Assembly: GCA_965213685.1 (NCBI GenBank)
Contig: CBDBZY010000064.1
Location: 256,001 to 320,000, forward strand
Direction: 5' to 3'
DNA from: a bacterium
GTDB lineage: Bacteria; UBA8248
DNA: 64,000 nucleotides
The position numbers and the translations under genes are program-made. Of this stretch, positions 1,719 to 4,700 are shown piece by piece. The first letter of the stretch is position 1; every line of letters begins with the position of its first letter. Below the pieces are notes generated by a model. The model saw only the letters and a program-made list of their open reading frames with translations, was not told where the DNA came from and did no database searches.

Positions 1719-4700
1719 CTAATGGAGGGGCTGATAGTAAGCATGACTCCATCCTGGATATAGGTAGAGGATTGAGGTAGTTATTTTGGGTTAGATGTAC
1801 TGGATTACAATGTAGTCATACCGTGAATAGGAAGGGAAGGTGAGTGCAGAACAGACTTCTTTTCTTTACGGGCCCCCCTCCTGGTGTACATGTAGATCCC
1901 TCCAATCACAAAGCATGACACAATAGCAACTACAGCTCTGGAAGAGACACAAATACAGGTAGCACAAAGTTATAACCTTGATGTGTACACAGTTTCCTTA
2001 GGCCACAAAACACATGCAGTTTTTTCCAGGTGTATAGAAGTTACGTAGTCCTGTAAGATGTGCTTATGTCAGGCTCATATACATGTACAGTGACTGGGAG
2101 TGCTATAGTCCCCTACAGTGGAGGAGGTTGTGGAGTAGCAGGAGGAGTGATTGGCTGGGTGCTGATTTCCACGGGATTTTATAATTGCGGAGTGGAGTTG
2201 TACATGTATAGTGCAATGTGCAGAGTAATGAACCTATACTTTGTTGTATGATTATCTGTGTACGGTAACCAGTAGAAGTTATAGAAGCACATCTGACTTA
2301 CTATTAAGACAAGTTTTAGTGTTGAAACACATATGCAGCAAGAAAGAAGTGTATCAATGTACATGTAATTGCATCCTGTATTATAAGACATCTGGGGTAA
2401 ACTTTAAAGTATGTACATGTATATGCACATATAGCTTCTGCCTACATGCTGTGGATTTCAGTTCACAATCAGCCATACAGATCCCCCAAATATTGCTCCA
2501 CTAGAATATATATGTATGGCTATCAGAGAGTCAGAAGACTCTCTCTGTAAAGATGGTCCCGATACACTCATAGTGCATGTACAAGCCTCGTACCAGGCTC
2601 TTTGCAAGGGGAGAGCCTGCATGGGTACGAGGTTATACATGTACACAAGAGCGCATAAACGGAGGGAGGGGGGAAGACCGTGTAACTCTCTATAGTCACT
2701 GTAGGAACAGCAGAATCTCCCACGTGTTACTATGTATAGAACTTCCTGCCATTCATACGGCTTTGCTAAGCAGGTGCATAAGCGTAACGCATCCTTAGAA
2801 ATGCTTCCGTTGCTACTGTAACACTCTATTTTTAGTACACGTGGGAGATTCTGTGTGTTCCCAAAAAGGTCGAAGTTACACGCTCTTACCCCCTCCCTCC
2901 GTTTATGCACTCTTGATGTACATACAAGAACCTCTTTAACACTCGTGTTCTAAGCCTTTCTGGGCACCAAGCTATCCTATTTCAATGCTTCTCTACCCAA
3001 CGATACCCCCTAAGTAGCTAAAATACTTACTGACAGAAAACAGCCAAACCATTGATTTTTCATTCTTTTTAAGGAAGTTTTCTGGCTGAAGTAGTCACCA
3101 AAAGTTTTCACTATAATGTCTATAGGATATGATGCTAGTTGAACAAAATCTTTGTAGACCTTTCTAAATCCAGGCAAGCAAAAATCACAAAGAGACCCAG
3201 AGTCTTCCCCATGCGTCAAAGCCATTTTCTAATATATTTCCACATGGCACAGCTTTTGAGCATGTACATGTACACGTGGGCTGATCCCCATGTGAATGCA
3301 TTGTGCAAACCAACCTACATGTACATGTACATGATGAAAAGGTGTAGGAATATTTAGAGAAATTGTGAAAAACCGGAAGTACACGTACACTGGGGGCCTT
3401 GCACATATGATTGTACATGTATAACTATATGTTTGGTGGAAGCACACATGTAGGTATACATGCACATGACTGTATAAGTGCATGTTCTGTACACATGGCT
3501 TGTACATGTACTTACAGTATCATGATAACTATTCCAATGATGCCTGCTAGAACTCCACCTTTCCCCCCTCCTCCTCCTCCTCCTCCTCCTCCGGAGCTGT
3601 GATTCTGAGCCTTGACCAATCTTCCACTCACTTGCATGTTCTGAAGGGAGGGAGAGGGGAGTGGTGAGGCCATTGGATGGGAACAGATCAGAAGGAGGGA
3701 GGAGGCAGGGAGAGAGAGAGGGAGGACAGGAAAGGCATACATACATTTAGTATGCACATGTACATGTATAGGTGTACCATTAGTGCTGTGTTCACAACAG
3801 CACTGGTCAATCTTGGCTAGGCAGGACTTACATAGGTGTGCTCCTGTGCACTGACAACTTCCATTGTCATGTCTGTGTCAGCATACTTGAACGTGACTTT
3901 AGCTGACCGGTTGCTGAGGGTCCAGACATACAATACACAGCAGTAAGTGCAGTGTGTGTAATATAGAGAAAGTTGAGGTGGCCATACTGGCCACTAACCA
4001 CCAGGGCAGGTTTTTTGGTTGCCTGACTCTCACTTGAAGCAACCGAATTTGTGCCGCCCACATGCACTAATTAATTTGCTCACACATTAATTAGCGTTTA
4101 GCGTTTAGTAGTATGTGGGCGAGATGTCTCTCTCACATGCAGGCATCGGGTTCTTGCTTTTTCTGCTGCCTTTTTCTCCAAAAAGTGAGCGCTCATGTAG
4201 GGACTATATTACCTAAATGTGTACACTCGTACAATATGTATGGTTGTGTGCGTGTAGCGCAAAGTATGCGAACGAGTCACTGCGCCACATCTGACCCATT
4301 GTAGAAGTGGAGGTCACCAGGAATGGTGACTAGTTGGTCAAAGTAGGTCACTACAGAACGTTTAAAGGTCGCCTGGGACCGCCAATTTCACACACTGAAG
4401 TATGTGTGGAACACAGTCACACAGCCACTCTATCCTAGGTACAAGTAGGTGGCCCTGTGCACCAAAATGGAGAGGATAGGTATTACAACACTTGTCACCA
4501 AACAGAACAGATCTTCATCTTCTCTGAGACATGTTACTAATTGTTTGGTGGAAGGAAAGGAATGTGGGGAGGGGAATGAGAATTGTTCATTACCTCTTCA
4601 AAGAATGGGCATGCATGCAAATACAATAATTGTATTCATATACATGCCATTCTGTGAAGAGGTAATGCATCTCAATTACATAATCATGTACACACAAGAT

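Follow-up and report, generated by a model that had tools for sequence, protein, structure and literature searches.

The stretch of DNA analysed here (the window) covers 64,000 nucleotides (nt), positions 256001-320000 of a 1.6-Mb contig (CBDBZY010000064.1, C64 below), and is eukaryotic, with spliceosomal introns, CA microsatellites and reverse-transcriptase open reading frames (ORFs). On its minus strand, seven-exon genes of one family, of the Atg27 / cation-dependent mannose-6-phosphate receptor (CD-MPR) kind, are arranged in tandem. Each encodes a type I membrane protein with a signal peptide, a small cysteine-containing lumenal domain, a glycine-rich linker, a membrane span to which exons 5 and 6 both contribute, and a short cytoplasmic tail. 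The subject of this paper is a cytoplasmic tail that arose in this family by a frameshift in exon 6. The existence of this tail is confirmed, and comparison of the copies gives good support to its modular spread across three different gene bodies. The closest named relative of the family is a hypothetical protein from the sponge Ephydatia muelleri, and the host organism is tentatively regarded as a sponge.

The letters A-I, given to the copies in the preliminary description of this DNA, are kept here. B2 and C2 refer to further members that lie outside the window on the same contig, which also holds the rest of copy A. The positions of the copies and of their relevant parts are listed in Table 1.

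Table 1. Gene copies and their parts, in window coordinates unless prefixed with C64.
Feature	Position	Strand	Remarks
Copy A, exon 1	0.26-0.41 kb	minus	remaining exons outside the window; ancestral exon 6 and exon 7
Copy B	10.5 to 1.7 kb	minus	intact, shifted tail
Copy C	36.3 to 23.3 kb	minus	intact, shifted tail
Copy D	40.3 to 37.3 kb (region 37300-40420)	minus	pseudogene
Copy E	43.0 to 41.07 kb	minus	intact, ancestral tail
Copy F	48.3 to 46.0 kb	minus	intact, ancestral tail
Copy G	53.6 to 49.2 kb	minus	intact, ancestral tail
Copy H	58.8 to 54.5 kb	minus	pseudogene, shifted tail
Copy I	62.4 to 59.7 kb	minus	intact, shifted tail; exon 1 just beyond the window
B2	C64:11864-19275, exon 7 at 19766		ancestral tail
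C2	C64:250159-246117		ancestral tail
B exons 1-5	10483..10302, 8186..8099, 7783..7644, 3913..3832, 3640..3516	minus	open, GT-AG
B, inverted E-like exon 5 relic	2081..2170	plus	upstream of B exon 6; 76% over 33 amino acids to E exon 5, opposite strand
B exon 6	1822..1937 (116 nt)	minus	second half of span and start of shifted tail; acceptor ..ccag|, donor |gtatga; open
B, replacing 16-nt segment	1852..1867	minus	stands for 27 ancestral nt
B intron 6	1754..1821 (68 nt)	minus	GT..AG
B exon 7, new frame	1719..1753	minus	ends at TAG 1721..1719; one base carried over from exon 6
B, old-frame remainder	1691..1718	minus	to old TGA 1693..1691; 3' untranslated if the new frame is used
C exons 1-5	36333..36179, 32376..32283, 31870..31737, 31549..31465, 31264..31158	minus	open
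C exon 6	23426..23550 (125 nt)	minus	shifted; 9-nt insertion 23523..23515
C exon 7, new frame	23323..23357	minus	with TAG
E exons 6 and 7	41313..41187 (127 nt) and 41133..41071	minus	unshifted tail nearest to the shifted block
H lesions	within 55161..57122	minus	1-nt insertion near 56994 (exon 3); 14-nt deletion beside 55180 (exon 5)
H exon 6	54600..54724 (125 nt)	minus	shifted
H exon 7, new frame	54493..54527	minus	
I exon 1	C64:320536..320379	minus	just beyond the window
I exons 2-5	62386..62293, 61813..61668, 61292..61211, 60469..60363	minus	open
I exon 6	59800..59924 (125 nt)	minus	shifted; donor gtttga
I exon 7, new frame	59697..59731	minus	V in place of A before YYQPLH

Frameshift in exon 6

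Three lengths of exon 6 occur: 127 nt (E, F and G), 125 nt (C, H and I) and 116 nt (B). Both these lengths and the coordinates of the preliminary description were confirmed. Comparison with E likewise confirmed the proposed net loss of 11 nt with its frameshift: 27 nt of E (41243..41217), coding for G-L-E-V-I-P-N-Y-G, are represented in B by 16 nt, and the reading frame moves to +1. In C, H and I the net difference from 127 nt is only -2 nt, and these copies carry an extra in-frame 9 nt in the membrane-span part of the exon. This insertion (23515-23523, 54689-54697 and 59889-59897, minus strand) adds L-N-V, which places a polar Asn in the span, and it is lacking in B and E. After the indel the new frame continues to the end of exon 6 and for 11 codons into exon 7, where a TAG closes it in the last exon, as claimed. 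The resulting tail is basic, has about 32 residues and ends in ..YYQPLH; the tail readings originally given hold in all shifted copies. In the whole assembly only four copies (B, C, H and I) are shifted.

The old frame can still be recognised downstream of the indel. It includes the text D-G-V-M-L-T-I-S-P.., the old peptide thus being readable in another frame. In B, H and I it is uninterrupted as far as the old TGA; in C it contains a TAA. In the shifted copies the old frame has substitutions where the rest of the family shows no variation (W to C, D to H, K to T, and S for the Cys of ..S-P-C..), so it has been freed from its former constraint. The +1 frame of the unshifted copy E contains a latent VYYQSL and has no stop there, as had been stated, and is open for at least 49 codons; its TGA reads TCA in the shifted copies. 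The TAG directly after YQPLH is present as described and is not special, as the +1 frames of the unshifted copies F and G and of D stop after 10, 13 and 6 codons, respectively. An early TAG was accordingly rejected as a sign of selection.

The same tail segment was lost independently in copy D through a 29-nt deletion, which leaves an exon 6 of 98 nt at 37561..37658 (minus strand) and also shifts the frame. Short direct repeats, judged by eye, flank the segment in intact copies and may make it prone to deletion.

The ancestral tail

The membrane-proximal block of the family reads ..RG-L-E-V-I-P-N-x-x-F-W-x-D-L-P-F-L-I-K-D-G... A HMMER search with the Ephydatia protein (P0003) returned 1,344 relatives at E <= 0.001, from which the 130 of at least 190 amino acids (aa) were examined. 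The pattern P-[NHQ]-x-x-x-W was found in 127 of these and a near variant in the other three, and a C-terminal Yxx[LIVMF] in 117 of the 127 block-bearing relatives, in a sample that leans to tail-bearing members because the query itself has the tail. Judged from these sequences, the FW-containing tail block is a hallmark of the family. Both elements occur in E, F, G, A, B2 and C2, except that F ends in ..YERT and thus has no C-terminal Yxx[LIVMF]. A second cluster of the family at C64:11864-33119, with genes on both strands, contains B2, whose tail ends in ..YEKL, and at least two further copies with ancestral exon 6. The block is missing from B, C, H and I, which have lost the membrane-proximal block and the family's C-terminal YxxPhi motif alike. 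The loss of the FW pair noted in the preliminary description is therefore genuine, and it concerns a block kept in one form or the other by all 130 relatives.

Pfam comparisons point the same way. With cut-offs of 27 bits for PF09451 (ATG27) and 25.4 bits for PF02157 (mannose-6-phosphate receptor), E exon 6 passes both (31.3 and 29.1 bits), as do the full-length relatives P0002 and P0003, and F exon 6 (40.3 and 23.4 bits) and the G ORF (28.4 and 24.6 bits) pass PF09451 only. The exon 6 translations of B and I match no Pfam family at E <= 1, and the bodies of B and I can still be aligned with the family as far as the span ends. A phmmer comparison of the lumenal part of P0003 with solved structures, including CD-MPR, gave nothing significant.

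The FW motif of CD-MPR has been reported to act as a signal for lysosome avoidance (PMC2172094). For yeast Atg27, tail residues 222-237 were described as required for Snx4-dependent retrieval, and the C-terminal YSAV as binding AP-3 (PMC5940307). By analogy, the block lost from the shifted copies would have a retrieval role in this family as well.

Origin and spread of the shifted block

Each intact carrier of the shifted tail is paired with a close sibling that keeps the ancestral tail, B with B2, C with C2 and I with G. The bodies are 84% (B-B2), 90% (C-C2) and 91% (I-G) identical in residues within the pairs and only 37-40% identical among B, C and I, and in the bodies of B, C, I and E synonymous sites are saturated (proportion of synonymous differences, pS, 0.74-0.82). 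The block of about 280 bp formed by exon 6, intron 6 and exon 7 behaves in the opposite manner: it is 94-97% identical among B, C and I. For exon 6, nucleotide identity is likewise 94-97% among the three carriers, only 53-59% between a carrier and its own sibling, and 78-82% between a carrier and E. Sibling pairs of this kind, with the ancestral tail on one side, imply that the shifted tail was moved by ectopic recombination, and because its exon 6 is nearer to E than to the siblings, the block is E-like in origin. The preliminary description spoke of a tail common to four copies; the indel is shared, but it represents one event that was copied, not four, and H is a pseudogene.

The limits of the copied tract are visible in the divergence among B, C and I. 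Differences amount to 1-3 of 69-78 nt in the membrane-span part of exon 6, 2-5 of 47 nt in exon 6 after the indel, 2-4 of 68 nt in intron 6, 1-2 of 35 nt in the new coding part of exon 7 and 1-2 of the 28 nt up to the old stop, and rise to 11-25% at the end of intron 5 and 12-36% in the 3' flank. Overall, the core block diverges by 2-6% versus 12-36% in the flanks. The tract copied into C extends over about 23051-23606 and lies within a G-like 3' end, with G-like sequence on its 3' flank, and in I the tract borders on G-like DNA upstream, in intron 5. Copy H was made by duplication of a 5.2-kb unit (50798-56022 versus 56024-61280), which joined G-like exons 1-4 to I-like exons 5-7.

Copy B looks like the home of the shifted block. 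The tail of B, its 3' flank and exon 1 of A parallel the tail of E, its flank and exon 1 of D, and the absence from B of the insertion carried by C, H and I was counted in the same direction. The inverted exon 5 relic upstream of B exon 6 shows that the tail of B formed the 3' end of an E-like gene that has been broken up. Among E, F and G the unshifted tails were not homogenised (60-71% mutual identity in exon 6), and therefore the repeated spread of the shifted block is not simply general behaviour of the cluster.

State of the carrier genes

Copies B (255 codons), C (244) and I (248) are complete and open, with seven exons and GT-AG at every junction; in C, exons 5 and 6 are separated by a 7.6-kb intron containing retroelement fragments. 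In H, when the conserved splice sites are used, stop codons appear in exon 4, and the copy is dead. Copy D is a dead duplicate of A without an in-frame ATG in exon 1 and with a TAA in exon 4 (38055..38057, minus strand).

To calibrate the absence of lesions, the short introns of each carrier were aligned to those of its sibling and small frameshifting indels were counted, with exons 1-5 (for I, 2-5) as the coding counterpart. For C-C2, 736 aligned intron nt contain 8 such indels and the exons none, where 3.1 would be expected in the carrier exons if these had been neutral since the split (P(0) 0.044). The corresponding figures are 6 indels in 489 nt, none exonic and 3.8 expected for B-B2 (P(0) 0.023), and 19 indels in 1085 nt, none exonic and 3.8 expected for I-G (P(0) 0.023). 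A comparison of the two 5.2-kb units counted 33 small indels against 156 substitutions; the two indels within exons belong to H, which has thus acquired two frameshifts within the age of that duplication. Exons are clearly more conserved than introns in B/B2 (8.8% versus about 17-27% divergence) and in I/G (6% versus about 23%). For the genes as such, though not for the peptide, the indel counts speak indirectly in favour of function. The openness of the B and C bodies was rejected as an independent proof of age, both having young siblings.

Exon 2 (32283-32376 in C, 62293-62386 in I) is the exon most divergent between siblings, with 9 of 94 nt differing in C-C2 and 14 of 94 in I-G, in contrast to 3 of 146 nt in exon 3 of I-G. 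These differences may reflect diversifying change in a ligand-facing loop.

Motifs in the new tail

The immunoreceptor tyrosine-based inhibitory motif (ITIM) has the consensus [SIVL]-x-Y-x-x-[ILV], and the acidic dileucine signal reads [DE]-x-x-x-L-[LI]. Both had been recognised in the new tail, together with YQPL as a YxxPhi motif. YQPL does fit Y-x-x-[LIVMF] in four of four shifted copies, as a pattern match only; it is a by-product of old codons (T-I-S-P read one base later), and YQSL is already present in the +1 frame of E. The ITIM pattern is fitted by copy I alone (VYYQPL, with V at -2), the other three having A at this position. Only C fits the dileucine pattern (ERESLL); B has EKKSVL, and H and I have EKKSIL. 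A functional role of these motifs is unsupported.

The ORF of the shifted exon 6 (1808-1969, minus strand) had no match among proteins of 96-2000 aa or of 29-95 aa, look-ups that say little when blank because the organism's own proteins seem to be missing from the collections. Among metagenome contigs 597 pattern matches were obtained, none of which was confirmed.

Interpretation and alternative explanations

The best explanation, in our judgement with about an even chance of being right, is that a frameshifted block spread onto B, C and I and that these are still working genes with an altered tail. The comparisons show that 16 nt took the place of the 27 nt at the start of the tail in the 3' end of an E-like copy, that ectopic gene conversion or unequal crossing-over then carried the exon 6-intron 6-exon 7 block to three unrelated bodies (B, C and I), and that it reached H through a recent duplication of the 5.2-kb unit. 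That B, C and I are genes still in use is itself plausible, the balance being roughly level; their predicted products keep the lumenal domain and the membrane span. Such products would no longer be retrieved through the lost block, and therefore their steady-state location should differ (cell surface or a lysosome-like compartment). If anything was selected, it would be the loss of the old tail, and the exact new peptide with its YQPL, ITIM-like and dileucine-like matches would most likely be a by-product.

Several observations weigh against this explanation. The new frame was compared over 28 codons (about 65 nonsynonymous and 19 synonymous sites), and nonsynonymous to synonymous differences are 6:0 (B-C), 2:1 (B-I) and 7:1 (C-I), so that no purifying selection is seen, in a test of low power, as the copies have diverged by only 2-6%; in the old frame the differences are likewise all nonsynonymous. 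The comparison of shifted and ancestral frames that had been suggested thus revealed, among the paralogues B, C and I, no synonymous excess in either. Intron 6 and the 28 nt past the new stop are as conserved as the coding parts, and therefore the pattern looks like recent copying and not like selection on the peptide. The functional overprinted tail of the preliminary description is not borne out by these ratios and this equal conservation of intron 6. Moreover, two of the five copies that lost the tail segment (H and D) are dead, the exon 6 donor of I has T at +3, and B and C are chimeras in relic-rich DNA, with the inverted exon 5 relic beside the tail of B. The B2-like homology of B stops about 100 nt into intron 5, and the C2-like homology of C ends within intron 5 near 30560, to be followed by 7 kb with retroelement fragments. 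Amino-acid constraint in the young pairs is weak, with omega (the ratio of nonsynonymous to synonymous rates) of 1.3 for C-C2, 0.64 for B-B2 and 0.47 for I-G. The lesion argument is also rough, as the block may have sat on these bodies for only part of the time since the sibling split, and conversion from intact siblings could have erased lesions (exon 1 of C and C2 differs at 1 of 155 nt).

A possible explanation, if a rather doubtful one, is decay, according to which the frameshift occurred in a redundant, broken E-like copy and was then carried by chance into other redundant duplicates through conversion or unequal crossing-over, both common events in this cluster. B, C and I would be young pseudogenes or hypomorphs, their open frames owed to short time and occasional repair from a sibling. 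An intact sibling with the ancestral tail does exist for every shifted copy, H and D are dead, the tail of B adjoins a relic of the same E-like gene, and that of C is embedded in the 3' end of a G-like copy, the remaining exons of which have disappeared. The missing synonymous excess and the omega of C-C2 agree with decay, as does the divergence between the two 5.2-kb units, which is equal in exons (3.3%) and non-coding DNA (3.0%). It is harder to reconcile with decay that the body exons of B, C and I, 1,779 nt in all, contain zero frameshifts, stops or lost splice sites, where the intron-calibrated rates predict several, and that H gained its two lesions in the same period. By a rough reckoning, which is a judgement and not a computed test and which allows for the caveats above, zero lesions under pure decay would have a joint probability of a few per cent. 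The greater conservation of exons than introns in B/B2 and I/G and the un-homogenised tails of E, F and G also speak against decay.

Rescue by splicing is very unlikely. The canonical exon 6 donor could be joined to a GAG acceptor 7 nt inside exon 7, which would restore the old frame and an ending in ..SYQEL, the YxxPhi with which the family usually ends. All four shifted copies have this donor and acceptor pair, E, F and G lack the acceptor, and the old-frame ending is open in B, H and I. The stretch of 28 nt from the new TAG to the old TGA is conserved like the coding parts. The GAG acceptor is weak, however, and lies 7 nt past a strong CAG with a pyrimidine tract; its AG arises from GGA-GTC, ordinary Gly-Val codons of the old frame. 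In addition, C has an old-frame TAA ahead of the motif, the FW block would still be missing, and the invariant Cys is lost from the old frame. No canonical splice pair restoring the old frame was found in the shifted copies; the frame is regained solely through the weak GAG acceptor or through minor GT sites. Programmed ribosomal frameshifting was also considered as a rescue and is unlikely, given that the old frame lost invariant residues. An assembly or sequencing artefact, with the indel absent from the organism's DNA, is extremely improbable. It has no positive support beyond the placement of H and I in a near-identical tandem unit, where assemblies can err, and it is opposed by the presence of the same indel in four copies with different flanks, which differ from one another by substitutions and the 9-nt insertion. 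Compensating changes such as the TCA in place of the +1-frame TGA of E, and the changed invariant residues of the old frame, argue against assembly error as well.

A more specific proposal, which we consider unlikely, is that the cluster forms a paired-receptor set of three lumenal types, each with a recycling form (B2, C2 and G) and a non-recycling short-tail form (B, C and I). In such a set, the short-tail form of C, H and I would in addition have an Asn inserted in its membrane span, and ectopic recombination would keep the new tail uniform as the useful part. If it were true, a modular tail swap would have created a second trafficking or signalling class from one frameshift, and, should the host be a sponge, this would be a case in an early-branching animal.

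Should B, C and I be used as genes with an altered tail, one small indel would have made a new class of receptor tail, which recombination then spread across several ligand-binding bodies. The cluster would offer a compact natural example of sorting or signalling diversity arising where the tail is otherwise conserved in every examined relative, and a natural loss-of-retrieval variant for probing the FW block beyond yeast and mammals. If the genes are unused, it is still a clear case of tandem clusters shedding copies after duplication.

Other features of the window and the assembly

The assembly is filed among prokaryote genomes (7.97 Mb, 71 contigs, 94% complete), yet the 1.6-Mb contig with the window is eukaryotic. 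The 12 largest contigs fall into six with a guanine-plus-cytosine (GC) fraction of 0.44-0.53 and six with 0.63-0.66, and these two classes suggest a bacterial bin mixed with host DNA. When sequencing runs were searched with 54001-64000 of the window, four runs from a single study, of undeclared type, shared 62-72% of the sampled words, and no RNA run was returned.

A perfect inverted repeat of 1,578 bp (100% identity) occupies 15558-17135 and 18235-19812, with an identical 148-aa ORF in each arm that has no Pfam match; the repeat could be a mobile element or an assembly artefact. Reverse-transcriptase ORFs (PF00078) were detected at 12239-14323 (plus strand, E 1e-34), 26471-27121 (plus strand, E 9e-9) and 29135-29878 (minus strand, E 1e-17), the latter two within intron 5 of copy C. 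Downstream of the tail of C, an F-like exon 1 relic is present at 20955-21091 (minus strand; 88-90% over 16 and 29 aa), and its vicinity is free of further F-like exons. Intron 3 of copy B contains several long CA/TG microsatellites (6300-8100). A long trinucleotide run occurs near 28.2-28.5 kb, and the H and I blocks have poly-C runs at their 3' ends.

Comparison with known systems

A non-exhaustive literature search found no description of this cluster, nor, among the papers listed, sponge work on a cation-dependent mannose receptor or Atg27. The mammalian CD-MPR has a tail of 67 residues with an acidic-cluster dileucine; the tails here are shorter and lack this signal. Like CD-MPR (PF02157) and Atg27 (PF09451), the unshifted copies have a span and a membrane-proximal FW block that are seen by Pfam, and as Atg27 is reported to end in YSAV (PMC5940307), the family ends in YxxPhi in 117 of 127 relatives. 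Unlike both, the shifted copies have lost exactly the FW block, and their exon 6 matches neither Pfam model.

The frameshift of the MICA A5.1 allele is said to affect sorting. This allele was described as carrying a frameshifting indel in the transmembrane exon, which likewise leads to a truncated or altered tail, and as a human polymorphism in a single gene (PMC3930404, PMC3987094), whereas the change here is fixed in several paralogues of one assembly. Paired receptors such as Siglec-11/16 and CD300A/C are reported to form clustered pairs with similar outer domains, different tails and gene conversion (PMC5701461, PMC12447643). The layout is present here as well, with near-identical outer domains (bodies 84, 90 and 91% identical), alternative tails (exon 6 53-59%) and a single cluster. 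In the receptors, conversion homogenises the outer domains, and the tails are described as having proven opposite signals (PMC5701461, PMC12447643). Here, by contrast, the tail block is homogenised across different outer domains, the ITIM pattern is fitted only by I, and a signalling role of the tail would be putative.

The euAP3 motif of APETALA3-lineage MADS-box genes is reportedly conserved across many species and functionally tested. It was described as a new C-terminal peptide that arose in a duplicate through a small frameshifting indel, with the old motif still recognisable in another frame (PMC1513400), and in both respects the tail described here is alike. Unlike for euAP3, conservation here is judged only among recently copied paralogues, which reveal no constraint, and the new end has also moved between paralogues. 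By analogy, the closest precedents for the shifted tail are frameshift-born C-terminal motifs in duplicates, as in euAP3, and, by layout, the paired receptors.

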